Below, piece by piece: positions 1-15,627 of a stretch of 32,000 bases of DNA. Under the pieces are notes generated by a model. The model searched no databases and was not told the DNA's origin. It worked only from the letters and a program-made list of their open reading frames with translations. The stretch's first letter is position 1; each line of letters starts with the position of its first letter. This stretch comes from Adlercreutzia muris (GTDB taxonomy: Bacteria > Actinomycetota > Coriobacteriia > Coriobacteriales > Eggerthellaceae). Position numbers and translations under genes: made by a program. Location: the NCBI RefSeq assembly GCF_008831045.1, contig NZ_WAJS01000006.1, positions 5,513-37,512 on the forward strand, written 5' to 3'.

Positions 1-30
1 AACCGGCTCGCCTTTTTCTTGTCTTCTGAG

Positions 31-85
31 TCTGTAACAAATATTTACAGATTTACGAGAAAACTGAAAAAATCTGTTACAGATT
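31..85. promoter_or_regulatory. two operator-like inverted repeats sharing TCTGT/ACAGA half-sites
   Basis: 31-51 is TCTGTAA-N7-TTACAGA with perfect 7-bp arms. 71-85 is AATCTGT-T-ACAGATT with perfect 7-bp arms. Both lie in an AT-rich non-coding stretch at the window edge; the target gene is probably off-window. Confidence 0.35.
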
Positions 86-164
86 CAGAAGAAGAACTTT
101 GCCGTTGCCAAACGATGAGGGTGGCCTGCGAGCTCGATGTGGCTTGATAAGGCAGGGAGCGCAT

Positions 165-1172
165 TTACCGCATGAATGCGTCGGCTTCTTCCAAGTCGCG
201 GGCTTCGCAAGGGATTGGCGTCTTTTCTTCGACCGCGCGTTGGGTGCGCTTCTTCTCGGCGCGCAGGGGCAGGTACTCGCTGATGACGATGCCGGCGAAG
301 ATGAGGGCGAAGCCGGCGAACAACGACGGCGTGAGCACTTCGCCGAGCAGGGCGATGGAGAACACCACGCCGAAGACGCATTCGGTGGAGAGGAAGAGCG
401 ACGCCTGGGCGGGATCGACCCGGGCCACGGCGGCGTTCTGGAGGCCGAGGGCGATGCATGAGGCGAAGACGGTCAGGTAGGCGAGGCTCACCCAGGTATC
501 GGGTGCCAGGTGCGCGAAATCCGGCGTCGGCTCGGTGAGGGCTCCGGCGGCAAAGCCGAGGATGCCGGCCGCTATGAATTGGATGACCGTGAGCACCGTC
601 ATGGAACGGCCGGGGGCGAACTTGGCCGTGTACAGCACGTGCAGGCTGAGGAAGAGCGCCGAGAGCAGCGTGACGAGATCGCCGAAGCGCAGCGAGAACG
701 CGCCGGCGCCCGTGTAGGAGACGCAGGCGACGCCGGCTGTGCAGGCGAGCGCCGCCACGATGTTGAACCGCGTAGGTTTCTTCCGGATGACGAACCAGCT
801 GAAAAACGGGATGATGACCACGTACAGCGTGGTGAGAAACGAGCTGTTGGAGGCAGTAGTGTCGGTGAGTCCCGAGGAGTTCGCCCAGTAGGAGAGGAAA
901 AGCAGCACGCCGAGCACGGCTCCATCGCGCAGATGGCCCGCGCCGTCGGCGGCCAGGCGGTCGCGTAGCTTGCGGAAGCTGACGAGGCCGAGGATGATTC
1001 CCGCGCCCGTGAAGCGCACGCCCACGAGCCAGGAAGGCGGGAACTCGTCTACGGTGGATTTAATGACGACCGTGCCCATGCCCCAGATGGCCGCCGCAAC
1101 GAGCAGCGCCGCTTTGTAGGCCCACGAGGGCAGCCCGTTTTGTTTGAGCTGAGAAAACATAGTGCCGAGCAT
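165..1172 (-). CDS. EamA/DMT-family (drug/metabolite) transporter, about 10 TM
   Basis: The ORF 165..1352 was trimmed to the internal ATG at 1172 (MLGTMFSQLK...). From that point the protein is hydrophobic and has the two-EamA-repeat look (AAAIWGMGTVVIK..., FLSYWANS..., ALGLQNAAV...). The upstream 60 codons are polar junk running into the tRNA promoter. Confidence 0.75.
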   Translation of the reverse strand: MLGTMFSQLKQNGLPSWAYKAALLVAAAIWGMGTVVIKSTVDEFPPSWLVGVRFTGAGIILGLVSFRKLRDRLAADGAGHLRDGAVLGVLLFLSYWANSSGLTDTTASNSSFLTTLYVVIIPFFSWFVIRKKPTRFNIVAALACTAGVACVSYTGAGAFSLRFGDLVTLLSALFLSLHVLYTAKFAPGRSMTVLTVIQFIAAGILGFAAGALTEPTPDFAHLAPDTWVSLAYLTVFASCIALGLQNAAVARVDPAQASLFLSTECVFGVVFSIALLGEVLTPSLFAGFALIFAGIVISEYLPLRAEKKRTQRAVEEKTPIPCEARDLEEADAFMR

Positions 1173-1302
1173 GATAGCACGGCAGCCGTGCGCGGTGCGA
1201 GAAGGTGGGGCAATCCTGAGCTGTCTCGGCTGGTGCACGAGAGGCTTTCGCGGGCTATATATGCAGGAATTGTGCCCTTTTCTGTAAAGTGTTGCTGCTG
1301 GC

Positions 1303-1330
1303 TTGCAATCGTCGCCCAAACGAGTAATAT
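1303..1330 (+). promoter_or_regulatory. sigma70-like promoter for the tRNA-Met gene
   Basis: TTGCAA (1303-1308), a 16-nt spacer, then TAATAT (1325-1330), about 28 nt upstream of the tRNA 5' end. Confidence 0.5.
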
Positions 1331-1357
1331 AAATCCTTGCCCATTGAGGCAACCCAT

Positions 1358-1435
1358 TGCGGGGTGGAGCAGTCTGGTCAGCTCGTCGGGCTCATAACCC
1401 GAAGGTCGTCGGTTCAAATCCGGCCCCCGCGACCA
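1358..1435 (+). tRNA. tRNA-Met (anticodon CAT), initiator type, CCA encoded
   Basis: Cloverleaf read by hand: acceptor TGCGGGG/CCCCGCG, D arm GAGC..GCTC, anticodon loop CTCATAA, T arm GTCGG-TTCAAAT-CCGGC, then A73-CCA. Three consecutive G:C pairs (GGG/CCC) close the anticodon stem, the initiator hallmark. The sequence is near-identical to the E. coli tRNA-fMet body as I recall it. Confidence 0.9.
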
Positions 1436-1445
1436 AGAATTGTCG

Positions 1446-1473
1446 GCCGCCGAGTTCGCTCGGCGGCTTTTTT
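1446..1473 (+). terminator. rho-independent terminator after the tRNA
   Basis: GCCGCCGAG-TTCG-CTCGGCGGC (9-bp perfect stem) followed by TTTTTT. Confidence 0.8.
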
Positions 1474-1568
1474 GTTAGAGCGTAGGCGTTGCGATGGGCA
1501 TGGGGGAGACATTCTGGCCGGGGCTTAGTTGGGCATAGCAGTAGGTACTCTCACTGCAAGGAGCCCTC

Positions 1569-2537
1569 ATGAGCGACATCGAGATCTACGAATCACCCGA
1601 TGGCGAGATTCGCCTGAATGTCCAGCTTGAAGACGAGACCGTTTGGCTGACCCAACGACAGATGTCTGCTCTTTTCGGACGTGATAAGTCAACCATCTCA
1701 AGGCATATTCAGAGTGTGTTTGATGACGGCGAGCTTGAAGCCGATTCAACTGTTGCAAATTTTGCAACAGTTCAAATCGAGGGCGGTCGTGAGGTCGAAC
1801 GCATTGTTGAGCACTACAATCTCGACATGATAATCTCTGTCGGCTATCGGGTAAAATCCCAGCAAGGTGTTGCCTTTCGTCAATGGGCGACCAAGATTCT
1901 CAAGGAGTACGCCGTTAAAGGATTTGCGCTTGATGATCGTCGACTCAAAGATGGTCGTAGTCGCTATTTCCGCGAGTTGCTTCAGCGCGTGCGCGACATT
2001 CGCTCCAGCGAACGCAATCTTTATCAGCAAGTGACGGACATTTACGCCACGGCGATTGACTACGATCCCAAAGCGTCCATCACTCGCACGTTCTTCGCAA
2101 CGGTGCAGAACAAGCTGCACTATGCGGCTCATGAGCACACGGCGGCTGAAGTTATTTACGAACGCGTTGATCGCGATAAGCCGCTGGTGGGCATGACCAC
2201 GTTCGACGGCGACTACGTGACGCGGGCTGACGTTCGCATCGCCAAAAACTATCTCACCGAAAAAGAGTTGCAAACGCTCAACCTGCTCGTGTCCCGTTTT
2301 CTCGATTACGCGGAATTGCAAGCGTTGGAAGAGCGCACCATGACCATGCAGGACTGGATTGAGGAGCTCGACCGAGAGATCATCAACTCGCGGCGCGCGT
2401 TGCTCGAAGGCAAGGGGCTCGTATCGCACAAGCAGGCCATTCAGAAGGCGGAAGCAGAATTTGAGGCGTACCGTGCCCGCGAGATGCGCGAACTGGAGAG
2501 CGATTTCGATCGTGCCATCAAGCAACTAGAGGGGTAG
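1569..2537 (+). CDS. RhuM-family (virulence-associated) protein
   Basis: AAGGAG Shine-Dalgarno. The N-terminus (IEIYESPDGEIRLNVQLEDETVWLTQRQMSALFGRDKSTISRHI...) and the core (MIISVGYRVKSQQGVAFRQWATKILKEY) match the conserved RhuM-family signature from memory. Confidence 0.75.
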   Translation: MSDIEIYESPDGEIRLNVQLEDETVWLTQRQMSALFGRDKSTISRHIQSVFDDGELEADSTVANFATVQIEGGREVERIVEHYNLDMIISVGYRVKSQQGVAFRQWATKILKEYAVKGFALDDRRLKDGRSRYFRELLQRVRDIRSSERNLYQQVTDIYATAIDYDPKASITRTFFATVQNKLHYAAHEHTAAEVIYERVDRDKPLVGMTTFDGDYVTRADVRIAKNYLTEKELQTLNLLVSRFLDYAELQALEERTMTMQDWIEELDREIINSRRALLEGKGLVSHKQAIQKAEAEFEAYRAREMRELESDFDRAIKQLEG

Positions 2538-2767
2538 CGGCCCATCGTTCGTTCGAGAGCCTGTATCGGCTGAACTCACGAGCCAGGGGGCTCGGGACAA
2601 GTTTTGGACGCGTTGAGACATTTGTTCCGGAGATTTCCGCGAAGTCCCCCTCCTCATCCTGTGCCGCCGCCTAAGCCGTGTGGTTGGGAGATGTTCCTGT
2701 TCGGCTTCCTGTTGTTCGTATCGACTTAATATGGGAAGATATTCAGCGTAAACGGACAAAAGGGGTG

Positions 2768-3358
2768 ATGGGCGTGCAAGCTATCGTCGACTTGGCGGAA
2801 TCGAACGGCGGTCTGGTGACGACGGCGCAGGTTGTGGGCGCTGGGATTCCCCGAGCGCGAATCTCGGACATGGTGAAGACGGGCGATCTTGAGCGTGTGC
2901 AGCGCGGTGTCTACTGTTTGGCAGGCGCATGGGAAGACGAATTCCTTGCCACCCAACTCCGTTTCCCCAAAGGCATCCTCTCGGACGGAACTGCGCTCTA
3001 TCTCCACGGTTACGCCGATCGCGTGCCGTTTCAACTCACGATGACCTTCCCGCGCTCGTACGGGGCGACCAAGGCGCGCGAGGCGGGCATCGAGGTGCGC
3101 ACGTGTGCGGATGAGGTGCTCGGTCTGGGACTCACGGCGATCAGGACCCCGTACGGTAACGAGGTGAGCGCCTACGATCTGGAGCGCACGCTCTGCGACA
3201 TCGTCCGGGGACGTCGTGTCGTTGACGTGCAGGTGGTCAATCCGGCGATGAAGCAGTACGCCCGCAGCGGGGGGAAGGACGTTCAGAAGCTGCTGGATTA
3301 CGCGCAAGCACTCGGTGTAGAGAAAAAGATACGCAACTACTTGGAGGTGCTGCTGTGA
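2768..3358 (+). CDS. abiEi: AbiEi-family antitoxin/transcriptional regulator (type IV TA, abortive infection AbiE)
   Basis: Start taken at ATG 2768 (AAAGGGG Shine-Dalgarno). The N-terminal wHTH motif is GGLVTTAQVVGAGIPRARISDMVKTGDLERVQRGVYCL. The stop overlaps the next gene's start as GTGA. A paralogous decayed copy lies at 7558-8145. Confidence 0.8.
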   Translation: MGVQAIVDLAESNGGLVTTAQVVGAGIPRARISDMVKTGDLERVQRGVYCLAGAWEDEFLATQLRFPKGILSDGTALYLHGYADRVPFQLTMTFPRSYGATKAREAGIEVRTCADEVLGLGLTAIRTPYGNEVSAYDLERTLCDIVRGRRVVDVQVVNPAMKQYARSGGKDVQKLLDYAQALGVEKKIRNYLEVLL

Positions 3359-4200
3359 GGACCAAAAATGCAATGCAGCTCAAGGCTATTATTGGCAATC
3401 GCGCCAAGGAGAGCGGGGTACCGCCGCAGTTGGTGATGCAGAACTATCTGCTCGAGAGGTTGCTCGAGCGGATATCTCTCTCATTGTGGCGGAACAAGGT
3501 CGTCGTCAAGGGAGGCATGCTCATCAGCTCGCTGGTGGGGGTTGATAGGCGAAGTACCAAGGACCTCGACGCGACAGTTCGCGGCTTCCCGCTTACCCAC
3601 GAGAGCGCAGAGAGGGCATTCCGCGAGATTGCGGCTGTAGAGGCTGATGACGACTTTTCGTTTGAGTTCGTCCGCACTGAGGATATTCGCGAGGCCGACG
3701 ACTACCCAGGTATACGCGTGCACCTATTGGCCAGCTATGACAAGATGCGTTCGCCTGTCACCGTCGATGTGACTACAGGAGACAAAATTACGCCCGATGC
3801 TGTTGAGTACAGCTACCCACTCATGTTTGACAACCGCTCGCTCTCGCTCATGGCCTACCCGCTCCCTACTACGCTGGCGGAAAAGCTGGAGACGGTTGTG
3901 AGCCGCGGTATCGCGAACACGCGGCCGCGCGACTACTACGACCTGCGCACGCTCTGGCTCACAAGGAAGGCGGAGGTGGAACTGGGTGTGCTCCGGGATG
4001 CCCTTGCGGCTACGTCTGAGAAGCGCGGCTCATTTGGCGGGATGGGTCGCTACCGTGAGGTGATGGCTGAGGTAACTTCTGACGCTGTCATGCAGGATCG
4101 ATGGACGGCGTATGCCCATAGGTATCCGTATGTTGGAAGCATGACCCTCGCTGAGGCGTGCGAGACAGTTGTGGCGATCATGGAGGATATCAGCTGGTAG
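3355..4200 (+). CDS. abiEii: AbiEii/AbiGii-family nucleotidyltransferase toxin (DUF1814)
   Basis: GTG start overlaps the abiEi stop. The N-terminus is NAMQLKAIIGNRAKESGVPPQLVMQNYLLERLLERIS...KGGMLISS...RSTKDLD, typical of AbiEii. The same GTGA junction and N-terminus are conserved in the decayed copy at 7561. Confidence 0.8.
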   Translation: MRTKNAMQLKAIIGNRAKESGVPPQLVMQNYLLERLLERISLSLWRNKVVVKGGMLISSLVGVDRRSTKDLDATVRGFPLTHESAERAFREIAAVEADDDFSFEFVRTEDIREADDYPGIRVHLLASYDKMRSPVTVDVTTGDKITPDAVEYSYPLMFDNRSLSLMAYPLPTTLAEKLETVVSRGIANTRPRDYYDLRTLWLTRKAEVELGVLRDALAATSEKRGSFGGMGRYREVMAEVTSDAVMQDRWTAYAHRYPYVGSMTLAEACETVVAIMEDISW

Positions 4201-4285
4201 GCGCGCTTGCGAATTTGCAGACACCCCCACCGCAGTGACGCGGCACGGAGGCGATGCAACGCGGATCCAAGGTATGGGAAGGAAC

Positions 4286-4756
4286 TTACTTCACCACGGC
4301 GAGGTTCACGCTGGCGAGCAGGCCGGGGATGCTGCGCACGGCGGAGCGGTTCCATTCCTTGGCGCGGTCGGGTAGCTCCTCCCAGGGCACCAGGTAGGGG
4401 CTGCGCTTATGCTCCACGTCCTTGGAAGAACCGTAGCGCCAGCCGGCCTTCTGCCGCTCGCGCAGCCAACGGCGATGCTCCAGAATAGCGAGGCACTCCA
4501 CTTCGCTGGCCGTGAAGGCGGCCACGCAGCGATCGGGATAGCAGCTGCCGGCGGGGAGCACCTCGTAGCCGAGGGTGTCCAGCTTGCGGTGGATGCTGCT
4601 GATGTAGGCGATGGATGAATCGCGCAGGTCGGCAGGAAGGCTGGCAAAAGTGGCGAACTCCTGGTCGGCCTGGGAGGCGATGCGGTCGGCGGTATAGCGC
4701 TGGAACGAGGTGTGCGCCAGCTCGGTGATGACGTCGGTTTTGCCCGCTAATGTCAT
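4286..4756 (-). CDS. RyR (ryanodine-receptor-type) domain protein, two half-repeats
   Basis: The C-terminal half is ECLAILEHRRWLRERQKAGWRYGSSKDVEHKRSPYLVPWEELPDRAKEWNRSAVRSIPGLL, which fits the bacterial RyR (PF02026-like) consensus EH.RW...GW.YG...D...K..P.LVPW.EL....K..NR. The N-terminal half shows the related LP..LR.S.I..I..I..KL..LGY motif. Confidence 0.7.
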   Translation of the reverse strand: MTLAGKTDVITELAHTSFQRYTADRIASQADQEFATFASLPADLRDSSIAYISSIHRKLDTLGYEVLPAGSCYPDRCVAAFTASEVECLAILEHRRWLRERQKAGWRYGSSKDVEHKRSPYLVPWEELPDRAKEWNRSAVRSIPGLLASVNLAVVK

Positions 4757-4921
4757 CGTACTTTCTATTGCAAATGAGTTTTGACGGAGCGCTCTCGGCC
4801 TGATGACTGGTGAAATATTGCTTGGCGGCTTTTACCAAGCCTCCTTTGGTTCATAGATCGATACCCATATTTTCATTAAGGTTATGCAAGGATGCTAAGT
4901 GTTTCGTTTGTCTACTGAGCG

Positions 4922-6253
4922 TCACAGAGCGATTCCATCCTTGACGAGGAGTTCGCGGAGTACATGCGGCGGTGTGGAGGGATTTGAGGCAACGCCTATT
5001 TGTGTCCATGTGTCCAGAGAAAGCTCTTGGAGCACATCTTGCGGTGTGGAAGAATTCCTAGCGATGCATGGGCGTACGCGCCCCTCGCAATCACGTGACA
5101 GTTCGCGGAGCACATCCTGCGGAGCATGGGAGTTACATGCTACGCATCTGCGTACTGGCTCTTCGCTGTCGTGTGAGAGACTTCGGAGCACGTCCTGTGG
5201 TGCCGAGGAACTTCTGGCGGGTATACACCGCATTAGCAGGTCCTCGTCAAGCGAGAGTTCGCGGAGTAGATCGGAGGTAGCAGAAATCTTCTCCGCTGCA
5301 TGCAAGCGTACTTCTCTGAAGCGGTCGCGCATGAGATCCCGAAGTATGTCCCCTGATGCGTTTGGATTATCGGCGACGGCTCTCCGCACGTCCAGTTCAT
5401 TATCTTGGACGAGTATCTGAAGCAGTTCCTGCGGTGCGGAGGGGTTGCGCGCGACGTTACACCGCACGCGCTCGTCGACATCGCGATGCAAAAGGCGGAG
5501 CACGTCCTGGGGTGTGGTGGGATTGCACGCCAGGCTTCCACGTACTTCGGTGTCGCGAGAGAGCTCCCGGAGAACGTCCTGCGGCGCGGAGGGGTTGCGC
5601 GCGACGTTGATCCTCACTCTTTCGTCGACATCACGGTATAAAAGGCGAAATACGTCCTGCGGCGCAGATGGGTTTTCGCCGATACCCATGCGCACCCATT
5701 CGTCGCTATCACGCGCGAGCTCTCGCAGCACATCCTGGGGTGTGGAGGGATTCTGCGCGACTCCCGTGCGTACCAGATCCTCGTTGTCGTGAGAGAGTTC
5801 GCGAAGTATGTCTTCCGGTGCCGATAGGTTTTTTGCTACAGCCCATCGCACATCTGTGGTGCAATCGCTTGAGAGCTCACGGAGGATGTCCGGTGGGGTG
5901 GACGGGCTTTCGGCGATAGATGCGCGAGGCATCCAATCGCAATCGCGTGAGAGTTCACCAAGTAGATCTATTGAGGCAGAGTTGTTGCGAGTCACCGATT
6001 TTCGTACGTAGTGATCACTATCATGAGCAAGCTCCCAGAGTACCTCTTGTGGTGTATTGCGGTTTATAGCGATTCTCGTCCGCACCCCAGCGTTCCGGTC
6101 GTGTGAGAGTTCTCGGAGCGTATCCTCCGGTGTGTTGCGGTTTCCAGCGACGTTTTTCCGCACCTCTTCGTCCCAGTCGTGCGAGAGCGCCCGCAGTATG
6201 TCCTGCGGTGCATTGGGGTTCTGGGCAATTCCGTTTCGTAAATGGTGGTCCAT
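4922..6253 (-). CDS. alpha-solenoid repeat protein, about 17 tandem 26-aa LRV/HEAT-like repeats
   Basis: The ORF was trimmed to ATG 6253 (MDHHLRNGIAQNP..., GAGAGG Shine-Dalgarno). The repeat consensus is VRxxVAxNPSAPQDVLRELSRDxDxx, iterated from the N- to the C-terminus with a 78-nt DNA period. It resembles the leucine-rich-repeat-variant motif. Confidence 0.75.
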   Translation of the reverse strand: MDHHLRNGIAQNPNAPQDILRALSHDWDEEVRKNVAGNRNTPEDTLRELSHDRNAGVRTRIAINRNTPQEVLWELAHDSDHYVRKSVTRNNSASIDLLGELSRDCDWMPRASIAESPSTPPDILRELSSDCTTDVRWAVAKNLSAPEDILRELSHDNEDLVRTGVAQNPSTPQDVLRELARDSDEWVRMGIGENPSAPQDVFRLLYRDVDERVRINVARNPSAPQDVLRELSRDTEVRGSLACNPTTPQDVLRLLHRDVDERVRCNVARNPSAPQELLQILVQDNELDVRRAVADNPNASGDILRDLMRDRFREVRLHAAEKISATSDLLRELSLDEDLLMRCIPARSSSAPQDVLRSLSHDSEEPVRRCVACNSHAPQDVLRELSRDCEGRVRPCIARNSSTPQDVLQELSLDTWTQIGVASNPSTPPHVLRELLVKDGIAL

Positions 6254-6387
6254 GATGCCCGCCTCTCTGCTGCCTGGGATGTGTGGTGAAATGGCGATTC
6301 GTATTATACAATCACAGGGGAACAATTGCATGACGCGAGAGGGCTCGTCGATGTCCTTTTGAGTAATAAGCAGTTGAGGAAAGGGGT

Positions 6388-6972
6388 TTGGCAGAGATGC
6401 TCGAATCACTGCTTGAGACAGGAGCTGCGCGGCTCTACTCCTGCCTTCGTCGTTGGAGAACTGAACGTCGAAGGCGATATTTGAGAAATGCAATATATTT
6501 TGAGACCTCAAGTGAGCAAAATACGAGAACCAAGAAAAGGATAACTCGACTCCTTAAACAGAAGAAGAATATGGTTGCCGAGGATGCGTTCGTTGTCACG
6601 GGAATGCATGTAAACGCTAGTAATCTAGTCTATGAAGCAGCAGTTCTACGCGCGTTTTTTAATAACAAAACTGATCGATTCACTTTTCTTGAATGTACGC
6701 GAATTTTAGCTCTCTATGAGCATACTCTAATTGCCGAATTCGTGAAGTCGATGGGTTCTCGTAAAGAGCCTATTGATGCACTCGCCTTTTCTGGATTATA
6801 TAAGATACGATACAAATCGGGCTATATCCGCACTCGCTATGACGAGTGGGACGATGAGGAAATATTTGAAGAGTACTCCGGAATTAAGTTTGTTGAGGGC
6901 TCTTCGCTATCTTTCTGCGTTAACGGAACCGGGAAAGAGCTTGCAAGGATTCTATCGGAAGTTGACGTTTGA
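6388..6972 (+). CDS. hypothetical protein in AT-rich DNA, no recognisable domain
   Basis: The ORF is open from TTG 6388, with alternative ATG starts at 6397 and 6571. Hand-counted GC is about 33-45% for lines 6541-6720, against about 70% at 12001-12060. It is divergent from the solenoid gene. Confidence 0.45.
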   Translation: MAEMLESLLETGAARLYSCLRRWRTERRRRYLRNAIYFETSSEQNTRTKKRITRLLKQKKNMVAEDAFVVTGMHVNASNLVYEAAVLRAFFNNKTDRFTFLECTRILALYEHTLIAEFVKSMGSRKEPIDALAFSGLYKIRYKSGYIRTRYDEWDDEEIFEEYSGIKFVEGSSLSFCVNGTGKELARILSEVDV

Positions 6973-7039
6973 ACTTGAGTGGATGAAATATCCAATCCTC
7001 TCCAGTTATCGCGGAATTTGCAACAACTGAAGAGGAGCG

Positions 7040-7222
7040 ACTCGAACCGAGCAGGCCCAGACATTCGGCGCCCACGCCGGCGAAGAAGAGGATGCGGGTG
7101 TCTACCCAGTAGTCGACGGCTTTCGCCGCGGCCGAGCCCAGGGCGAAGCCCGCATCCATGGCGTTCACCTCGCGGGGGACCGCCCTGGCTTCTCGCTCGT
7201 GTTTGAAGCCGTAGTGGGGTGA
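7040..7222 (-). pseudogene. internal fragment of a DUF2148/ferredoxin-domain gene, paralog of 8375-8899
   Basis: The minus-strand translation HYGFKHEREARAVPREVNAMDAGFALGSAAAKAVDYWVDTRILFFAGVGAECLGLLGS aligns to the intact CGFATCGEKPASAPCEVNAVDVGIALGAAAAKAADYRVDTRIMFSAGVAAEHLGLLGE. Identity is 31/44 over the core by hand count. Both ends are missing and the Cys ligands are lost. Confidence 0.7.
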
Positions 7223-7226
7223 GGTG

Positions 7227-7561
7227 CTACCTCAAGTACGCCTTGATCACTCCCATAGCCTTCGTCACTGAATCGCAGGTTTCAGGGAATTCGATGCTGG
7301 CCGCATAGGAGTGTGTTTCCAGATATCTGGCCCATAACTTGGTAAGGCCTTCATCTTTTCGGACGGCGGAAAGCGTCTTTTCATAATCTGCGATGACATT
7401 CGCACCACCTCGTTTTTCATAGGTAGCAGCCAAAGCCTGCCCCAGTGTTTCGAGGTTGCATCGCATGCTTAACTTTGAAGCATGAGTTGGGGAGACACAT
7501 TTGCGTCGCGGGCCTTCTTTTTGATTATCGCTTTGAGCTGCATAGCATTGGTCGTTTTCAC
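7227..7561 (-). pseudogene. AbiEii toxin remnant with a large internal deletion
   Basis: The GTG at 7561 gives VKTTNAMQLKAIIKKKARDANVSPQLMLQS, then a stop. In another frame the C-terminal about 75 aa (ALAATYEKRGG...WARYLETHSYAASIEFPETCDSV) matches the tail of 3355-4200. About 175 codons, including the NTase core, are absent. Confidence 0.75.
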
Positions 7562-8145
7562 AGGAGCACCTCCACGTAAGTTCTGATTTTGTTACCCACA
7601 CCAAGTTGGGTAGCGTATTCAAGGAGCTTTGGGATATTTCGCTCGGGTGAGGCGAGGTACGCCTTTACGGCAGGGTTGAAGGTTTGTGTATTGACGACGG
7701 CTTGTCCGCGCACCATATCGCAAAGGGATCGCTCGGCGTCATAGAACTCTCACTCCATTGCCATAGGGGGTTACTGCCGTCGTTTCGCCAAGGGAATGCA
7801 GTTCCTTGCCAACGATTTTCGGAATGATGCCCTCGGTGGTCGCGGATGACAGGTTGTATCCTCGCGGGAAAGTCATGGTGATGCGCTCGGGGGCGCTTTC
7901 GGCGAGCCCCTGCAGGTACAGGGCGGTTTCGTGAGAGAGGATGCCGCGACCAAACCGATGCGAAGCTATGAGGCACTCATCTTCCCAGGCATCGGGGTGC
8001 AGTACAGGCTCCGCGATATGCGAAGCAGTTCCCCGTTTGAGGCCGACCTGGCCAAAGTTGCCCTGGGTATGCCTAAGGTGTCCACATCCGCTGAGGATAC
8101 GAACCCATTTTTTGCCAGGAGTATGTCTTCCACGGCTTGATTCAT
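7558..8145 (-). pseudogene. AbiEi antitoxin, frameshifted at least twice
   Basis: Three frames must be spliced to recover the homolog. They read MNQAVEDILLAKNGFVSSADVDTLGIPRATLARSASNGELLRISRSLYCTP (from ATG 8145), then DAWEDECLIASHRFGRGILSHETALYLQG...TPYGNGV, then FYDAERSLCDMVRGQAVVNTQTFNPAVKAYL...KIRTYVEVLL. The shifts lie near 7991-8000 (a C-run on the coding strand) and near 7745-7756. Confidence 0.75.
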
Positions 8146-8374
8146 GATGCGGTGTCCTTGTGAACGTATGATGCAATAATGCTACACTAAAAATTATATA
8201 CATAGCATAAATATATCAACAAGAGGGACACTGTATCGGCGCAATGCGAGCTTGGGCATTGGTGGCGAAGCAGCTTAGTGGTCCGGGATCTGAATGGGAG
8301 CGGGCATGGTAATCTAAGCGAATATTCGCGCGAAAAAGACGTATAGATTGCCATGAGCAATGGCGGGCGAGTTA

Positions 8375-8899
8375 CTACCCCCTATCGAACAGAGGGCTCT
8401 TGGAGCTGATGCTCACGGGGATGGCGTACACCTGCCCCACGTCCTCGCCCAGCAGGCCCAGGTGCTCGGCGGCCACGCCAGCGGAGAACATGATGCGAGT
8501 ATCTACGCGGTAGTCGGCGGCCTTCGCCGCTGCTGCGCCCAGAGCAATGCCTACGTCCACGGCGTTCACCTCACAGGGCGCAGACGCGGGTTTCTCGCCG
8601 CACGTGGCGAAGCCGCAGCGACCGCAGTTGAGGCCCTGCACCTTGGCGCGGGTGCCCACGAGCACCACGGCCAGGCTCTGGCGCACGCAGTCGGCGTCGC
8701 GCAGGAAGAACTTGTGGCCGCGCTCTTCGCCGATGGCCTCCATGGCGCAGGCGATGCGCTCCTGCTCGTCGCCGTCTGCAACGGCGCATTCCACGATGTC
8801 CACGCCCTTGCCCTTGGGGGCCGTCCGTGCCGCCACGCACATCTTCTGGGCAATGTCGAGGGCCTGGGCCTGACGCAGGTCGCGTTCGTTGTAGATCAA
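8375..8899 (-). CDS. DUF2148 / ferredoxin-domain-containing protein
   Basis: Conserved AARTAPKGKG...CGRCGFATCGE...NAVDVGIALGAAAAKAADYRVDTRIM. The start is uncertain. No in-frame ATG precedes the conserved N-terminus, so I used TTG 8899 behind GGAAAGGCAGGA. The long 5' extension to 9412 is Arg/Pro-rich junk. Confidence 0.65.
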   Translation of the reverse strand: MIYNERDLRQAQALDIAQKMCVAARTAPKGKGVDIVECAVADGDEQERIACAMEAIGEERGHKFFLRDADCVRQSLAVVLVGTRAKVQGLNCGRCGFATCGEKPASAPCEVNAVDVGIALGAAAAKAADYRVDTRIMFSAGVAAEHLGLLGEDVGQVYAIPVSISSKSPLFDRG

Positions 8900-9063
8900 G
8901 GGTTCCTGCCTTTCCAACTCTGAACATACGTTTTGAAGGGCGATTAGGCCACTTTGCAGGGCCCTTCGCTTTTTCCGATTGGCCTTTCGGCCAATGCATG
9001 GTTCAAGGTCCGCCAAGAATCTTACCGCATCTGCCCGCTGGGGGAGACCGGCTGACAGAGGCG

Positions 9064-9537
9064 CTACAGCGCTCCTGCGCGATAGGCTCGGATGGCGGCG
9101 AGGGTCGCATCGGCGAAGTGCTGGATGGCGTCCACTTGAACCCAGCGGCCGTCTTCCCGATAGCGCAGGGAATGCCCTCGGCTGCGGCCAACGCGCAGGT
9201 GCCCGATGGAGAGGGTCACGCTGCCGGGGATCTCCCGGGTTTCGACGTGGGTGCTGATGCTCGAGCCTCCCAGGGCCCAGGCGGCGAGGCCGGCGTCTGA
9301 AATGCTGCCTGTCTCCTGGTAGACGGCCAGGGCCGCCATGGCGCCGAAGCCGTCGTCCTTCTCCTCCGTCTGGTAAACGCGCCTCTCGGTGCGTCCCGGC
9401 AGGCCGGCGCACACGATGTGGGATTGCCTTGTGAAGTGGTAGCGCTCGCCGTTAACCGCGATTCCCCAGGTGAAAACCTCCCACGTGCCGGTTCCGTCCT
9501 TCGCCTGAAAACGTGCGAGTGCTTGCTGTGCGTCCAT
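9064..9537 (-). CDS. hypothetical protein (157 aa), no recognisable domain
   Basis: ATG 9537 is preceded by AAAGGACGG. The amino-acid composition looks natural. It lies directly downstream of, and on the same strand as, the 550-aa gene. Confidence 0.55.
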   Translation of the reverse strand: MDAQQALARFQAKDGTGTWEVFTWGIAVNGERYHFTRQSHIVCAGLPGRTERRVYQTEEKDDGFGAMAALAVYQETGSISDAGLAAWALGGSSISTHVETREIPGSVTLSIGHLRVGRSRGHSLRYREDGRWVQVDAIQHFADATLAAIRAYRAGAL

Positions 9538-9557
9538 GAATCCGTCCTTTCGGAATT

Positions 9558-9619
9558 GCGCCATGGCGCGATTATGGCGCGATTGGCGCGATTATGGCGC
9601 GATTGGCGCGATTTTCGCG
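9558..9619. repeat. iteron-like array: 5 x TGGCGCGAT with alternating 11/9-bp spacing, flanked by small palindromes
   Basis: Copies start at 9564, 9575, 9584, 9595 and 9604. That is a 20-bp unit ATTATGGCGCGATTGGCGCG about 2.5 times. There is a perfect 12-bp palindrome GCGCCATGGCGC at 9558-9569 and CGCGA-TTT-TCGCG at 9607-9619. Confidence 0.85.
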
Positions 9620-9628
9620 TTGCTGCTC

Positions 9629-11281
9629 CTACTTCAGGTAGCGGGTGGAATAGTTGTCGAGGTGCTTGCCGATGTGCGAGACGATGATGCGGCCGGTCTC
9701 TTCGTCGAAGGCGAAGTAGAGGCGCAGGCTGTTGGGGCTGGCGTCATCGTTTCCCTTCGCCAGGTGGGCCTCCGCGTTGATGGCGCGGCCCTGGTAGGTG
9801 TCCTGGTACTGGGTCATGAGCCGGCTGTCCTTGCGGGTCATCTTGCCCGCGCCGCGCTTTAGCTCGAAGGCCGATTGGGCGTTGAACTTCTTGGCGTAGT
9901 CGCCGGCATCGCGCGAGGCGAAAAGGGGGTGGGCGATGGCGCACAGGTCGTGCAGGGCGTTCCAGACCAACGCCGGCTCCGTGATGCAATCGCTCAGCGA
10001 CTGATAGGCGCGATCGGTGAAATCGACGCGATCGCCGTGGTGCGCGCAGAAGAGCCGAAGGATATCTTCATAGGGCAGCGGCCAGCAGTGCAGGTCGTCG
10101 GCGCTTTCTGTCTGCCGTCCCGCCCGGCTGAGCTGGCCCTCGAGGGTCGTCGCCTTCGCCTGGGCCAGATACAGCTCGCTTTCGAGCTCGTCGTTGCGGG
10201 CCTTCAGCTGGTCGTTCTCGTGGTGCAGCTCCTCCAGAAGATCGACGGCGACGGCCTTCTCCTCCTCGGCCGCCTCCGCCATGTCCAGGGCTTCCGAGAC
10301 GGACTCGTCCTTCACCTGCTTGGTGTGAATGAGCCAATCGCGGCGCCGTTTCACCCCGTCGGCCCGCAGCATGGTCTCGTAAAAGTGCACGTCCTGGGCC
10401 AGCGCCCGGCGCAGGATGCCGATGAAATCCTCCTCGCCCATGGCCTCGATGTCTCGGGCCGGGAAGAAGCGGTGGCGGCCCGCGTCGCCGGGCTCTTCCA
10501 CGCGTGGACGGCCGGCGTATACGCGTACGGTGCCATGACAGCAGCGAAAGGCCAGCTCGGGAATGCACGCGCGCATCTCCTGGGTGAATGCCCCGTCCTG
10601 GGAATAGCACACGAAGGCCGAGGGGCCCAAGGCCGCGGCCACCCGTTTCGGGTCTACGGCGAAGGAAGGTTCGTCGCTGCCGGGCTCGAAACGGGGGCTG
10701 ATGTAGACGAGGGGCGTCTCCCGCTCGCCATCGGCGATGAAGTTCCACAGATCTTTGAACTGCCCCACGTGCAGCAAGGTGGGCTCAAGGGACAAAGGCC
10801 GGCCCGAGGCGGTGCTGACGAGACGATCGTTTTCCAGAATGGTCCGGATGAAGCCAGGGAAAGTGAGCTCGGGCTCGGGCTGGCAGGGGCCGAGGAAGCC
10901 CGGCGTGTCGCCATAGGACAGGGCGACGGCCACCGAGCCCGCATCTACGGCCGTCCAGACGAAGGAGATCTCGGTCGTCCAGTGACGCGGGGCCGCACCG
11001 GGCTCCTCGGCGATCTCCTCGATGGTGAGGGCCCAGTGGTTCCCGCCGTCTTCCAGGCACAGCTCCGAACGGAAACGGACGGGGCGGCCTTCCTGGAAGG
11101 GCACGCGGCCTGTTCGCTTGAGGGCGCTCCAGAAGGCCGCTTCTCGGGGAAGGGCCGGGTACTTGCGCGTGGCCCACGCCCGCAGGCTGCACAGAAGGCT
11201 CCACAGGGCATCGTCGCCCTCATCCGTCGTGCGAATGTCGAAGGAGGTTTTGTAGAACATGGTCTTGTTCAGATCGTGCAT
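9629..11281 (-). CDS. large hypothetical protein (550 aa) with a central coiled coil; unknown family
   Basis: The ORF was trimmed to ATG 11281 (GAAGAGG Shine-Dalgarno; MHDLNKTMFYK...). The composition looks natural, whereas the 530-aa antisense ORF is G/V/L/R-rich shadow. Heptad-like acidic/Leu region at aa about 325-390 (nt about 10112-10309). No Walker A or nuclease motif seen. Confidence 0.65.
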   Translation of the reverse strand: MHDLNKTMFYKTSFDIRTTDEGDDALWSLLCSLRAWATRKYPALPREAAFWSALKRTGRVPFQEGRPVRFRSELCLEDGGNHWALTIEEIAEEPGAAPRHWTTEISFVWTAVDAGSVAVALSYGDTPGFLGPCQPEPELTFPGFIRTILENDRLVSTASGRPLSLEPTLLHVGQFKDLWNFIADGERETPLVYISPRFEPGSDEPSFAVDPKRVAAALGPSAFVCYSQDGAFTQEMRACIPELAFRCCHGTVRVYAGRPRVEEPGDAGRHRFFPARDIEAMGEEDFIGILRRALAQDVHFYETMLRADGVKRRRDWLIHTKQVKDESVSEALDMAEAAEEEKAVAVDLLEELHHENDQLKARNDELESELYLAQAKATTLEGQLSRAGRQTESADDLHCWPLPYEDILRLFCAHHGDRVDFTDRAYQSLSDCITEPALVWNALHDLCAIAHPLFASRDAGDYAKKFNAQSAFELKRGAGKMTRKDSRLMTQYQDTYQGRAINAEAHLAKGNDDASPNSLRLYFAFDEETGRIIVSHIGKHLDNYSTRYLK

Positions 11282-11615
11282 GGAAGCCTCTTCTCGGTGC
11301 GATCCCGTCGAGCAGTTACGATGATGGTTTCCATAATAATAGGACGGGGCCTGGGGTCTCAAGAGATTGTGGGCGAAGAGGTGTTTGCAGGTATGGCTGC
11401 GAAAGAGCCGAAGGGGGCCGGCGGCGGTATCAGGCGAATGGGCTGCCTGCGAGCGGGCCCCGCGTGAGGAGTGGCGCGGGGCTCGGGGAGGAAGGGCGGA
11501 AGGGGCCGGGTGGTCGGCTGAGCTGCGGGGTTCGCGCGGTGCCGCCAGTTGCCGGGGAGGTCACGGTTGGCGGCGCGCCGCCCCCGCGGCGGGCGGGGTC
11601 GGGTAGCATGGGGCC

Positions 11616-12356
11616 ATGACCGTATTTGAAGCCCGACATATCGGCGTGCAATACCAGCGCAACGGAGAGCCCTTCGCCCCTTTCTCGGACGTGAGCCTTA
11701 CCTTGGAGGGCGGCCGGATGTACAACCTCACCGGCCCGTCGGGGTCGGGGAAGTCTACGCTGCTGGCGGCCTGCGCCCTCATGCTGCCGCGCTCGGGCGG
11801 ATCCCTTGCCTTGAACGGCGTGCCCTTCGATCGCTTTCATCCCACCGAATGGCGCCGGCGTGTGTGCCTGGTGCCCCAGGCTTCGGCTTTGGTGCCGGGC
11901 ACCGTGCGGGACAATCTGCGGTTTCCCTGGACGCTGAAGGTGAATGCCGGCACGGAGCCGCCGAGCGATGAGTTCCTCGAGGAGCTGCTGGCCCTCGCGC
12001 AGCTTAACGGGGTGACCCTCGACCACAATGCGGCCCAGCTCTCGGGCGGCCAGCAGGCCCGGGTGGCGCTGCTGCGGGCCTTCGCCACGCGCCCGACCGT
12101 GATGCTGCTCGACGAGGTGGAGGCGGCCCTCGATGAGGAATCTGCCGTGGCGGTGAGCCGCCTGACCCGGGCGCTGCTGACCGGCGCCACCACCTGCCTG
12201 CGCATTCGCCACCGGGCCGACGACGGCTACGCCTGCGGAACGTTCACCTTGGCCGATGGCGCGATCAGCTACGAGGCCCATCCCGTGACTGCCGACAACG
12301 CCCCAGTGGCGGGGACGGGGGCCGCGGTCGGGATCCTGGAGGGGGCGAGCCGATGA
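11616..12356 (+). CDS. ABC transporter ATP-binding protein, FetA/YbbL-like
   Basis: Walker A GPSGSGKST, signature LSGGQQARV, Walker B LLDEVEAALD. The stop overlaps the permease start (ATGA). Confidence 0.8.
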   Translation: MTVFEARHIGVQYQRNGEPFAPFSDVSLTLEGGRMYNLTGPSGSGKSTLLAACALMLPRSGGSLALNGVPFDRFHPTEWRRRVCLVPQASALVPGTVRDNLRFPWTLKVNAGTEPPSDEFLEELLALAQLNGVTLDHNAAQLSGGQQARVALLRAFATRPTVMLLDEVEAALDEESAVAVSRLTRALLTGATTCLRIRHRADDGYACGTFTLADGAISYEAHPVTADNAPVAGTGAAVGILEGASR

Positions 12357-13174
12357 CCGGCGGCGTGGTGAACATCGGCTACGGGGAGCTCGTAGGGGCG
12401 AGCCTGCTCATGCTGGTGGCCGGTATCGTGTCGTGGCGGCTGCGGCTCGGTCAGACTCGGCGCATCGCCGTCTCCACGGTGCGAGCCTTCGTGCAGCTTC
12501 TGGCCATGGGGCTTCTGCTCGTGTACCTCTTCCGCTATCAGACCTGGTGGCTCGTGGGGCTCGTGCTCGTGGGCATGTGCATCGCGGCCACGCAGATTGC
12601 CACAGGGCGCACCAAGAACGTCATGGGCGGCCTGTGGGCCGACACCTTCGCCTCCATCACGGTGTCGTCGCTCGTCATCTCGTTCATCGTAGTGGAAGGC
12701 GTTATCCATGCCGATCCGTGGTACAACGCCATGCAGCTCGTGCCCATAACGGGCATGATGCTGGGCAACACGCTGTCCGCCTCGGCTGTGGCCACCGACC
12801 GGCTGCTGTCCTCCATGGATTCGCGGGCGAGCGAGATATACACCATGGTGGCCCTGGGCGCCACGCCGCGCGAGGCGGCGTTTCCCTCCATCAAGGCGGC
12901 GGTGGGCGCGGGTATGACCCCGACGCTCGCTCAGTTGTCGGCTGCGGGCATCGTGCAGATTCCCGGCATGATGTCGGGCCAGATCCTCGCCGGCGCCGAC
13001 CCCATCATCGCGGCGAAGTACCAGATCGTTGTATTGCTCATGGTGTCGGCGGCCACTACGCTGTCCATCGTCGTGATGTGCTTCCTCGCCTACAAGAAGC
13101 GCTTTGCGGCCGAGGGCTACTTCCTCGACCCTGCCCTGCGCGACGATATGGGCTCCCGGGGCTCGGGACGCTAG
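12353..13174 (+). CDS. ABC transporter permease, UPF0014 / FetB(YbbM)-like
   Basis: Polytopic membrane protein with the ITGMMLGNTLSASAVATDRL and TPREA...AAGIVQIPGMMSGQILAG motifs that I associate with the YbbM/FetB family. Translationally coupled to the ATPase. Confidence 0.7.
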   Translation: MTGGVVNIGYGELVGASLLMLVAGIVSWRLRLGQTRRIAVSTVRAFVQLLAMGLLLVYLFRYQTWWLVGLVLVGMCIAATQIATGRTKNVMGGLWADTFASITVSSLVISFIVVEGVIHADPWYNAMQLVPITGMMLGNTLSASAVATDRLLSSMDSRASEIYTMVALGATPREAAFPSIKAAVGAGMTPTLAQLSAAGIVQIPGMMSGQILAGADPIIAAKYQIVVLLMVSAATTLSIVVMCFLAYKKRFAAEGYFLDPALRDDMGSRGSGR

Positions 13175-13332
13175 GCCGGTCTGCCTGCGGCCGAGGCGCG
13201 GCGGGCGAGCGGGCTGCGGCGATGAGCGGGTTATTCCCGTCTGTGATCGGCGTGGAGGGGCTCACGGGGCCCAGAGGTGGTTTACAATAGGCGCCGTCAG
13301 TTTTTAAGTTCTTTGGGAAAGAAGGCTTTACC

Positions 13333-14217
13333 GTGCCGGCACGAACCATGGCTCCGCGCTCCTGCGCCCCCGCGCAGCGGGGGGAGACGGCGCCCGAGAT
13401 CGCACCGGTCGCGGCGCTGCTCACGCGCCGGACGTTTCTAGGGGCGAGCGCCTGCGCCGTGGCAACCCTGCTGACGGGCTGCGGCAGTTCGGAAGCCGGC
13501 GTGCAGGCCCGTCAGATCGCCGAAGTTCCCTGTCCGTACAACTGGGACAACCTCATTTGGGATGGCGGCCGGCCCGTCTACTACGAGAACGACCAGATTT
13601 GCTCCCGGTGGGGCGTGGACGTTTCCGAGCACCAGCACACGGTGGACTGGGAGGCCGTGGCGGGGGCCGGGGCTCAGTTCGCCTTTGTGCGCATCGGCAA
13701 CCGCGGCGCTACCGAGGGCAAGCTGGACGTGGACGAGTTCTTCCTGGCCAACGCCATCGGCGCCCAGGCAGCGGGCATTCCCGTGAGCGCCTATTTCTTC
13801 TCCCAGTCCTTGGACGAGGCGGAGGCCCGCGAAGAGGCCGCCTTCGCCATCGAGCAGCTGCGCGAGGCCGAGCACGAAGGCGTGACCTTCCACATGGTGG
13901 CCTACGACCACGAGCCCGTGGAAATCGAGGGCGCCCGGGCCAACGACTTGCCGCCCGACCAGTTCGCCGCCAACGCGCGGGCTTTCTGCGAGCATATTCA
14001 GAAGGCCGGTTTCTCGCCCATGATCTACGGCAATCAGCAGGATCTCATGCGCCTGTCGGTGGAGGAGCGGGCCACCTATCCGCTCTGGCTCGCCGAGTAC
14101 GGCATCGACGATCCCACGGTGACCTTCAACTTCGCCATTTGGCAGTACACCAACAAGGGCACCGTACCCGGCATCGACACCGACGCCGATCTGAACATCT
14201 GGCTCGAGACCCCCTAG
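13333..14217 (+). CDS. GH25 muramidase (lysozyme), Tat-type signal plus lipobox
   Basis: WGVDVSEHQHTVDWEAV...FAFVRIGNRG...VSAYFFS...IWQYTNKGTVPGIDTDADLNIW is the GH25 pattern. The N-terminus has TRRTFLGASACAVATLLTGC (twin-Arg plus L-x-G-C). The start GTG 13333 is uncertain; ATG 13348 is the alternative. Confidence 0.75.
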   Translation: MPARTMAPRSCAPAQRGETAPEIAPVAALLTRRTFLGASACAVATLLTGCGSSEAGVQARQIAEVPCPYNWDNLIWDGGRPVYYENDQICSRWGVDVSEHQHTVDWEAVAGAGAQFAFVRIGNRGATEGKLDVDEFFLANAIGAQAAGIPVSAYFFSQSLDEAEAREEAAFAIEQLREAEHEGVTFHMVAYDHEPVEIEGARANDLPPDQFAANARAFCEHIQKAGFSPMIYGNQQDLMRLSVEERATYPLWLAEYGIDDPTVTFNFAIWQYTNKGTVPGIDTDADLNIWLETP

Positions 14218-14241
14218 AAGAAACTCAATAGAAGGAGCTTC

Positions 14242-15303
14242 ATGAACATCAACAAGGCCATTCTCCATGTGTTCGACTTCGTGTCCTGCGTGAACGTGTT
14301 CGCCCAGACGGAGATGGACTTGGGCAACAAGACGGCCAAGCGCTACGTGACGAGCCAGGCCAAGCGGGCCGTGGGCAATCTGGACAGCAAGCGCGGCGCC
14401 TTCGCCGAGAACAGCCTGTTCGCCGAGGAGCTGCGGGCCTACTTCCGCGGCGAGCGCGACTTCGTGGGGCTTACCCGGCAGATCGGCGAGTTTTTCGTGG
14501 GCGAGTTGTCGCGTATGGAGAAGACCCCCTCCACCGACCTGCTCATCATCGACTTCGAGGGCGACCTGGACCAAACGGTGCGCGAGATGACCGACGAGGA
14601 GGCCGAGGCCGCCTTCAAGGGCCGCGGCACGCGGTACTTCGCCATCGTATTGCTGGAGGCCCGTCAGGCCTACATGCACGAGGTGGGCTCCAACGATTTC
14701 GGCGATGCGGCCACTACCATCGCGCGGCACCATGCCATTCTGCCGAATCCGTCCCAGAAAGTGGCGTCGTTCGCGCTCATCGACGGCGATGCCATGACCG
14801 TGTGGTTCGTGGACAAGGAGCGCGAGATTGCCGGCGAGAAGCGTTGGCTCATTCCCGACGGCCTGCTGCAGTGCTCCATGGAGGCCTCGAGCAAGGAAGT
14901 GCTCGAGGCCGTGACCACCGTGGTGGAGGAAGTGGCCGAGGAATACGGGGCGAACACGGCCCGGGCGCTCGCCCGCGCGAAGTCCTACGTGGCCGAGAAC
15001 GCCGAGGACTCCGACGAGGTGGACGCCCATGAGCTGGGACGCGAGGTGTTCGCCGACGAGCCGGTGCTCCAGGAGCGCTTCGATCGCGCGGTGGACGCCG
15101 GGGCCATTCCCGAGCGCGTGGTGGTGGAGAAGGCCGTGGCGAAGCGGGTCACCAAGAACCACAAGATTCGCACCGACACGGGCATCGAACTGACCTTTCC
15201 GGCCGAGTACGGCGAGAACCCCGACTTCATCGAGTTCTTCAGCACGCCGGACGGCCGCATCGAGATCGCCCTGAAGAACATCGGCGCCATCGAGAACCGC
15301 TAG
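14242..15303 (+). CDS. nucleoid-associated protein, NdpA/YejK (NA37)-like
   Basis: GAAGGAG Shine-Dalgarno. The N-terminus MNINKAILHVFDF... and the overall length and acidic composition fit the Gram-positive NA37-like family, from memory only. Confidence 0.5.
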   Translation: MNINKAILHVFDFVSCVNVFAQTEMDLGNKTAKRYVTSQAKRAVGNLDSKRGAFAENSLFAEELRAYFRGERDFVGLTRQIGEFFVGELSRMEKTPSTDLLIIDFEGDLDQTVREMTDEEAEAAFKGRGTRYFAIVLLEARQAYMHEVGSNDFGDAATTIARHHAILPNPSQKVASFALIDGDAMTVWFVDKEREIAGEKRWLIPDGLLQCSMEASSKEVLEAVTTVVEEVAEEYGANTARALARAKSYVAENAEDSDEVDAHELGREVFADEPVLQERFDRAVDAGAIPERVVVEKAVAKRVTKNHKIRTDTGIELTFPAEYGENPDFIEFFSTPDGRIEIALKNIGAIENR

Positions 15304-15332
15304 GGGTTTAACGCCAAGACCTTATCAACATT

Positions 15333-15531
15333 ATGGCGATTCTCGCAAGTGCCGAAAAGGAAAACGTCAAAACCGCCATCTCCCAAGTTGAGGCGTTTTC
15401 CCGGGGCATTCGGATTATCGCCGCGGGAGTCTGAGGTGCTCGAGTACCTTTTGAGGGGCTACACCGTTGCCCGTCTCAGGGAACAGCTGTTTATATCGCC
15501 GAACGCGGGAAAGGGGTGGCGCGTGCGATAA
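15333..15531 (+). pseudogene. remnant of a LuxR-type regulator (C-terminal HTH region only, frameshifted and truncated)
   Basis: Frame 1 reads ...AISQVEAFSRG. Frame 2 reads AFGLSPRESEVLEYLLRGYTVARLREQLFISPN and breaks off in mid-HTH, where AT-rich DNA begins (about 15530). There is no N-terminal sensor part. Confidence 0.6.
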
Positions 15532-15627
15532 TACTGAGATATATTTTTGCGTATACGGTATATTTATAGCTTAGTGGTATATTACTTATATAAGCACTCT
15601 TAGAGAATGGACAAGTGAGGTGAAATC

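Follow-up and report, generated by a model that had tools for sequence, protein, structure and literature searches.

A low-GC block downstream of tRNA-Met in Adlercreutzia muris is probably the present filling of a hotspot for defense and accessory genes

The window, a 32,000-nucleotide stretch of the 2.77-Mb genome of Adlercreutzia muris (assembly GCF_008831045.1, here G000, 94 contigs; contig NZ_WAJS01000006.1, here C6, positions 5513–37512), contains a block with a low guanine-cytosine (GC) content directly downstream of a tRNA-Met gene. With a probability of roughly 0.8, this block (positions 1436–8374) is the present filling of a chromosomal hotspot for defense and accessory genes and not a single mobile element. 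The first-pass annotation, made from the letters of the window, had described the block as an old and eroded integration hotspot or defense island rather than an active mobile element. The description is supported by the fixed left flank of the block and by its content, which has been replaced and is largely related to defense. All of the genes named at that stage are present: a RhuM gene, an intact AbiE pair, a gene encoding a RyR domain, an LRV solenoid, an orphan open reading frame (ORFan), a fragment of a DUF2148 gene, and a decayed second AbiE. The block had also been presented as one island; it is a variable defense hotspot, but a layered one, with at least four layers that differ in age and composition. 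The comparisons cover 15 congeneric species (G001–G015) and two contigs of close strains, L059 from the sister assembly GCA_948835945.1 and the metagenome contig L067, a set that does not amount to a pan-genome.

The left flank of the block is shared by all 15 congeneric species, in which the gene of an EamA-family transporter (165–1352, minus strand; PF00892, E = 3e-39) with a nucleotide identity of 75–89% is found together with tRNA-Met (CAT) (1358–1435, plus strand; ARAGORN; 61.5 bits to Rfam RF00005). Judged from the three G:C pairs in its anticodon stem, the tRNA is presumably of the initiator type. It is followed by a terminator composed of a hairpin (1445–1468) and a T-run (together 1445–1477, plus strand; terminator scan). 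Homology of the flank stops at 1471–1477 in the comparisons with G002, G001, G006, and G011, and at 1439 in those with G007, G009, and G013. Because the terminator is the last conserved sequence of the flank, the variable region is taken to have its left breakpoint at 1440–1478.

Downstream of the terminator, the content of the locus changes from species to species. The tRNA and the DUF2148 gene or its neighbor, gene X, are 1.1 kb apart in G002, 1.4–2.8 kb in G009, G011, G007, and G012, 7 kb in G008, 10.7 kb in G015, and over 20 kb in G001, G006, and G013. The sole gene between the tRNA and DUF2148 in G002 encodes a DUF3990 protein, and both RhuM and RyR are missing from the site in this species as well as in G007 and G009. 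RhuM and RyR occur without the remainder of the block in G003, G006, and G014. Recognized defense systems cluster at the locus: AbiE and PDC-S05, the single-gene candidate system to which RhuM corresponds, are inside the block, and the candidate HEC-07 is 1.3 kb beyond it. The same site in the relatives holds, between conserved flanks, genes of Type I restriction-modification (R-M) systems, AbiD, TIR-domain proteins, and AAA_21/DUF4435 proteins, and in G008 there is a weak match to a pVip-like radical-SAM protein. The block is not conserved and syntenic as a whole, with uniform codon usage, in all of the relatives.

Individual segments of the block have different nearest relatives. Positions 1391–2583, which include RhuM, are 97.6% identical to L067; positions 2707–4747, with AbiE and RyR, are 98.6% identical to G001 and 86% identical to G015; and positions 4703–15306 are 95.3% identical to L059, with 98–99% identity over 5000–8000. 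The collinearity with L059 extends at 98–99% identity over the LRV gene, the ORFan, the DUF2148 fragment, the decayed AbiE, DUF2148, gene X, and gene Y. To the left of its truncated RyR gene, L059 carries a Type I R-M system, AAA_21/DUF4435, and AbiEi.

Turnover is also seen at the junction between the convergent genes RhuM and RyR. Their stop codons abut in G003 and are separated by a 120-nucleotide spacer in L067. The same junction is occupied by AbiD in G014, by a Type I R-M system and AbiE in G001, and by AbiE in G015 and in A. muris, in which the inserted segment reaches from about 2583 to the RyR stop codon. The convergent junction thus behaves as a cassette slot, with AbiE lodged between the two stop codons. 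RhuM, whole or truncated, adjoins the tRNA or a displaced repeat of the tRNA 3′ end in nine of the 15 congeneric species (67–80% nucleotide identity), and RyR is present, whole or truncated, in 9/15. In G006 and L067 RhuM is not part of the integrase element, which is positioned upstream of the displaced end of the tRNA; therefore, RhuM predates those insertions. RhuM and RyR are long-standing residents of the locus.

The GC content of the block is 55.5%, compared with 65.1% for the genome, of which 1-kb windows have a mean of 0.651 with a standard deviation of 0.046, a 5th percentile of 0.561, and a 1st percentile of 0.50. The minimum within the block is 42%, at 6501–7000. The values that had been counted by hand, 33–45% for the 60-nucleotide lines in 6541–6720 and 70% for 12001–12060, were reproduced exactly, and the composition falls where it had been said to fall, directly past the tRNA and its terminator hairpin. 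The GC content at third codon positions (GC3) is 0.62 for RhuM, 0.70 for AbiEi, 0.71 for AbiEii, 0.85 for RyR, 0.59 for LRV, and 0.40 for the ORFan, and the genome mean is 0.83. Both codon usage and composition are therefore non-uniform across the genes of the block. Two more dips in GC content, to about 50–55%, are located downstream of the block at 15250–16500 and 18500–19500, and are probably separate small insertions.

The first-pass annotation had reported no integrase, transposase, or duplicated tRNA 3′ end, and the absence of the integrase and of the duplicated 3′ end was borne out. The integrase family PF00589 has no match anywhere in the 32-kb window; the sole match on contig C6 is weak and lies about 56 kb beyond the end of the window, and nine Phage_integrase matches are located elsewhere in the genome. 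A search of the window with a 25-mer of the tRNA 3′ end, allowing up to three mismatches, returned the tRNA itself only, and neither a repeat search of positions 1–12000 nor a whole-genome BLAST search found a copy. Terminal direct or inverted repeats were searched for at the ends of the block, and none were found. An intact transposase is apparently absent from the block as well, since its coding space is fully assigned to other genes. The genome encodes no close homolog of the integrase that targets tRNA-Met in relatives, the best match having 40% identity over 63 residues. Lacking an integrase, an attachment repeat, and a cognate integrase in the genome, the block is therefore immobile on its own. 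In comparison with integrase-mediated tRNA islands, it has the atypical composition and the presence/absence polymorphism beside a tRNA, and it is devoid of the integrase and of the direct repeat of the tRNA 3′ end.

The last 45–50 nucleotides of the tRNA are present twice in four relatives, G004, G006, G010, and L067 (the repeat begins at window position 1388–1391). In three of the four, the repeat has a tyrosine-integrase gene no more than about 1 kb away (G006:C2:174361–174960, G004:C7:32949–33485, and L067:2835–4046). Therefore, the site is a genuine attachment site of one family of integrase elements, which is absent from G000. The 403-residue tyrosine integrases encoded at L040:6338–7549 (from G004) and at L067:2835–4046 are 95% identical, and each is positioned beside a 45–50-nucleotide repeat of the tRNA-Met 3′ end. 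This integrase marks one element family that targets tRNA-Met across Adlercreutzia species. Inserts are also found on the other side of the tRNA, between it and EamA, with lengths of 4.7 kb in G010 and 10.6 kb in G013, so that in some species the upstream side varies as well. The RyR gene of G010 is inverted and located directly upstream of the tRNA (L050, G010:C1 7070–7954).

The adjacency to a tRNA, the low GC content, and the missing mobility genes would also be expected of a single degenerate integrative element, such as a genomic island or a satellite, that was acquired once at the tRNA and later lost its integrase and right attachment site (attR) by deletion, all the more since integrase elements do target tRNA-Met in the relatives. 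However, GC3 spans 0.40–0.85 inside the block, each of its three segments is closest to a different relative, RhuM and RyR are found without the rest in three species, the LRV gene and the ORFan were not found in the 15 species, and RhuM lies outside the integrase element in both G006 and L067. A one-time acquisition is thus improbable. An even smaller probability is assigned to an active element that is mobilized in trans, whether the recombinase comes from another part of the genome or the helper is a phage or an integrative and conjugative element. Integrase-less defense islands of unknown mobility have been described, such as hotspot #37 of Escherichia coli (PMC10121019); however, terminal repeats and a genomic homolog of the tRNA-Met-targeting integrase are both missing here, the block contains pseudogenes that have been inherited for a long time, and L059 shares only its right two-thirds.

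The explanation with the least to recommend it is that the region is native and vertically inherited, and that the low GC content reflects local gene content without horizontal turnover. RhuM and RyR are indeed syntenic in many congeneric species, with a divergence similar to that of the EamA flank, and the codon usage of RyR is native. Nevertheless, three species (G002, G007, and G009) lack RhuM and RyR, AbiE, LRV, and the ORFan are limited to few genomes, and the contents differ even among close strains, a distribution that contradicts this explanation. According to a further proposal, the convergent RhuM and RyR pair might be a conserved docking site at which defense cassettes (AbiE, AbiD, and Type I R-M, for example) are repeatedly and precisely inserted at the junction of the two stop codons without an ordinary integrase, and/or LRV and the ORFan might form an undescribed conflict module. 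It is considered unlikely, although less so than the three explanations above.

Several observations weigh against the interpretation of the block as the filling of a defense hotspot. The exchange of cassettes by homologous recombination is deduced from mosaic patterns and was not observed. The 98.6% identity of the AbiE–RyR segment to G001 is no proof of a recent transfer, because mosaic identity, ranging from 83% to 99%, is also seen between G000 and G001 in two unrelated 20-kb samples of the core genome and in the right flank; a recent transfer of AbiE from G001 was considered and rejected as unproven. No attR remnant survives that would show how RhuM and RyR reached the tRNA. The first-pass annotation had the block full of conflict-system genes, which goes too far, since there is no evidence that links RyR, LRV, and the ORFan to conflict systems. 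Another LRV-only protein of Adlercreutzia is encoded among housekeeping genes.

The two core samples provide an observation on the genus as a whole. In the comparisons of L068 and L069 (G000:C1 and C3) with G001, G003, G009, G012, and G015, adjacent core segments have identities of 83% and 99%, a pattern that points to extensive recombination between species.

If the block is the filling of a chromosomal hotspot, its formation may be pictured as follows. Elements with tyrosine integrases would attach at the last 45–50 nucleotides of the tRNA, as they do in the relatives, and recombination at conserved anchors (the tRNA terminator, RhuM, RyR, DUF2148, and gene X) would add, exchange, and trim the cargo. 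We infer recombination at the anchor genes from the mosaic identities and the shared breakpoints. A first layer would be formed by the old residents RhuM (PDC-S05) and the convergent RyR, and a second layer by the intact AbiE cassette, an abortive-infection toxin–antitoxin (TA) system, in the slot where these two genes end. The lineage-specific pair of LRV solenoid and ORFan may constitute a third layer. A fourth would be the wreckage, likewise lineage-specific and composed of the DUF2148 fragment and the second AbiE, with its frameshifted antitoxin and the deleted core of its toxin, both unchanged in the sister strain, and DUF2148, gene X, and HEC-07 would represent a fifth layer past the low-GC part. 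Judged from their family membership, the working parts of the locus are likely RhuM, AbiE, and HEC-07, each of which would act against phages independently of the others.

RhuM (1569–2537, plus strand) is the first gene downstream of the terminator. It matches PF13310 with E = 1e-105 (model positions 1–249 of 252) and the PADLOC model of the single-gene candidate system PDC-S05 with E = 3e-140 (PDLC04853, positions 7–326 of 336), so that the matches span nearly the whole of both models. One RhuM-domain representative of PDC-S05 protected E. coli B against phages T7, T5, and T4, with the plating of T7 and T5 reduced about 1000-fold (bioRxiv 10.1101/2024.09.26.614923).

The intact AbiE pair consists of the AbiEi antitoxin and regulator (2678–3358, plus strand; PF13338, E = 1.5e-15; PADLOC AbiEi, E = 4e-68, positions 8–194 of 198) and the AbiEii nucleotidyltransferase toxin (3355–4200, plus strand; PF08843, E = 4e-38; PADLOC AbiEii, E = 3e-94). 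The two genes overlap by four nucleotides and both match their models over the full length, which is the arrangement of a type IV TA system of the AbiE group. AbiEii aligns end to end (residues 6–276, E = 3e-44) to chain B of the PDB entry 9hlo (9hlo_B, AbiGII) and retains the GG...DxD motif. Dy et al. are said to have established in 2014 that the AbiEii toxin is restrained by AbiEi, which serves as both autorepressor and antitoxin.

The 156-residue RyR-domain protein is encoded on the opposite strand, convergent with RhuM and AbiE (4286–4756, minus strand; PF02026, E = 1.6e-12). The protein also matches RyR repeats in the PDB at E = 4e-21, from RyR1–3 and the Bacteroides protein 3nrt. The region matching PF02026 leaves the N-terminal 85 residues without a family match. 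The codon usage of the gene is native, with a codon-usage z-score of +0.9. All named full-length relatives of the protein belong to Adlercreutzia-type genomes. The view that RhuM and RyR form a two-gene system of wide occurrence is unsupported, given the origin of the full-length RyR relatives and the truncation of many copies. The gene is cut at an identical point, window position 4521/4522, in two independent contigs, L059 (8088–8322) and L067 (5601–5836), and it is truncated at 4403–4447 in G005, G008, and G012, which suggests that its 5′ half has been broken repeatedly. The slot past RyR contains genes for TIR-domain proteins in G001, G003, and G015, and for a kinase and a PP2C protein in G001.

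The LRV solenoid has 443 residues (4922–6253, minus strand; PF01816, E = 5e-62) and is formed by about 17 repeats of 26 residues, corresponding to a period of 78 nucleotides. The internal repeats are evident from the families D1 and D2 of a repeat search and from the repeat register. No DNA matches to the LRV gene or the ORFan were found in the 15 congeneric species. The LRV gene of L059 is 98–99% identical. In L060, the gene is frameshifted by a one-nucleotide insertion at window position 5828; it is called as two open reading frames of 269 and 181 codons in L060–L063, and the 181-residue piece is found in several other metagenome contigs from the mouse gut. Therefore, part of the population carries the LRV gene as a pseudogene. 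The idea that LRV represents a defense-linked family is unsupported, as the identity to its relatives does not exceed 46% (50% in a single match over a third of the length) and the similarity is at the level of the repeats.

The AT-rich ORFan encodes 194 residues (6388–6972, plus strand) and is divergently oriented to LRV. Searches of Pfam, PADLOC, PHROGs, and the PDB returned no match, and its family has four representatives among 1.84 billion proteins. The core of the protein, residues 70–190, is conserved at 46–59% identity in L067, P0002, and P0030, and the nearest homolog is annotated as belonging to Adlercreutzia caecimuris. Because of this conservation, the ORFan is regarded as a real gene of an extremely narrow family. 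An AlphaFold model calculated from the four-sequence alignment has a predicted local distance difference test score of 41.6 and is unusable.

The right part of the block is occupied by gene wreckage. The DUF2148 fragment (6920–7231, minus strand; PF09918, E = 9e-10) has its homologous part at 7047–7196, which corresponds to about codons 113–162 of 174, so that the gene is missing at both ends. The fragment is 77–79% identical to the resident gene (8448–8598) over about 150 nucleotides, with exact runs of about 12 nucleotides or less, and it is closer to the gene of G004 (85% nucleotide identity) than to the resident copy (77%). In L059, the fragment is 99% identical at the amino acid level. 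It may be a displaced 3′ end produced by site-specific insertion of the decayed AbiE, an origin to which the low identity, the short exact runs, and the truncation on both sides lend little support. The decayed AbiE is located at 7227–8215 on the minus strand, where the pieces match PADLOC AbiEi with E = 7e-20 and AbiEii with E = 9e-9. Its AbiEi (approximately 8181–7558) is readable only across three frames, and its AbiEii is reduced to about 30 codons at the N-terminal end and about 75 at the C-terminal end, with the nucleotidyltransferase core deleted. The amino acid identity to the intact pair is 32–57%, and the decayed AbiE is therefore a separate acquisition and not a duplicate. L059 has exactly these frameshifts and this toxin deletion, and only 10 mismatches were counted over 1.5 kb. 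Since the lesions are common to both strains, the wreckage has been inherited and is not recent.

The intact DUF2148 gene, which encodes a ferredoxin-domain protein, follows at 8375–8899 (minus strand; PF09918, E = 2e-25; GC3 0.84; TTG start codon with a ribosome-binding site at 8899). Homology with G002, G007, and G013–G015 resumes at 8375. The right edge of the block at 8374 is a compositional border only; by synteny, the variable region extends to about 11.4 kb. DUF2148 is present in most congeneric species at 78–84% nucleotide identity, in differing positions and copy numbers, with two copies in G009. Gene X (9064–9564, minus strand) encodes 166 residues, has no match in Pfam or PHROGs, and is a shared but movable neighbor: the order is DUF2148–X–Y–ABC in G000, and X–DUF2148–ABC in G007, G014, and G015. 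Gene Y, the HEC-07 candidate anti-phage gene (9629–11362, minus strand; 577 residues; PADLOC PDLC04161, E = 6e-28), is located in the native-GC part of the variable region and is found in four of the 15 congeneric species and in one other genus. The minus-strand frame is taken as the real gene because the overlapping plus-strand frame of 530 codons is less conserved. The conserved right flank, as defined by synteny, is formed by the pair of an ABC ATPase and a UPF0014 permease (11616–13174, plus strand; PF00005 and PF03649), which adjoins DUF2148 in G007, G009, G014, and G015. Units of TGGCGCGAT(T), with a spacing that alternates between 9 and 11 nucleotides, are arranged in tandem at 9555–9619. 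Arrays of these units with variable copy number also occur in G001, G004–G007, G010, and G015. They usually adjoin DUF2148 in the relatives, and in G000 the array is positioned between genes X and Y.

Salmonella pathogenicity island 3 (SPI-3) is a genomic island that is integrated at the tRNA gene selC and carries rhuM. The block in A. muris resembles it in the adjacency to a tRNA, the low GC content, the mosaic structure, the RhuM-family gene, and the presence of pseudogenes. Unlike SPI-3, however, it has neither an integrase nor direct repeats, and its cargo is related to defense and TA functions, not to virulence. The intact AbiE conforms to the type IV TA systems in that the gene of AbiEi, a winged helix-turn-helix protein, overlaps that of AbiEii (DUF1814) and the GG...DxD motif is kept. 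By contrast with the AbiE systems described, the second copy in the block is dead. The matches to the PADLOC models of PDC-S05 and HEC-07 are strong hidden Markov model matches, but the proteins are distant, actinobacterial members of these groups.

The closest likeness is to hotspots of the type of E. coli #37, with fixed flanks, variable defense cargo, frequent absence of mobile-element genes, location at tRNA loci, and AbiE among the cargo. In 68% of the occupied cases, hotspot #37 has no detectable mobile element (Hochhauser et al. 2023, PMC10121019). Eighteen of the E. coli hotspots are at tRNA loci, and two hotspots similarly dedicated to defense have been described in Pseudomonas aeruginosa (PMC10121019). 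The locus described here differs from the E. coli hotspots in belonging to the Actinomycetota (Eggerthellaceae) and in its flanks, EamA and tRNA-Met on one side and ABC/UPF0014 on the other. In the sample of 15 species and two strain contigs, it is also distinguished by the internal anchors RhuM and RyR, which split the hotspot into slots.

Because hotspots of this kind are well described in Proteobacteria, the current understanding of them is unchanged. The analysis provides a map of a tRNA-linked defense hotspot in a little-studied genus of gut actinobacteria, in which no mobility genes are left and the cargo is still turning over. It also supplies a short list of genes, namely the candidate defense genes RhuM/PDC-S05, AbiE, and HEC-07, and their neighbors RyR, LRV, the ORFan, and gene X.

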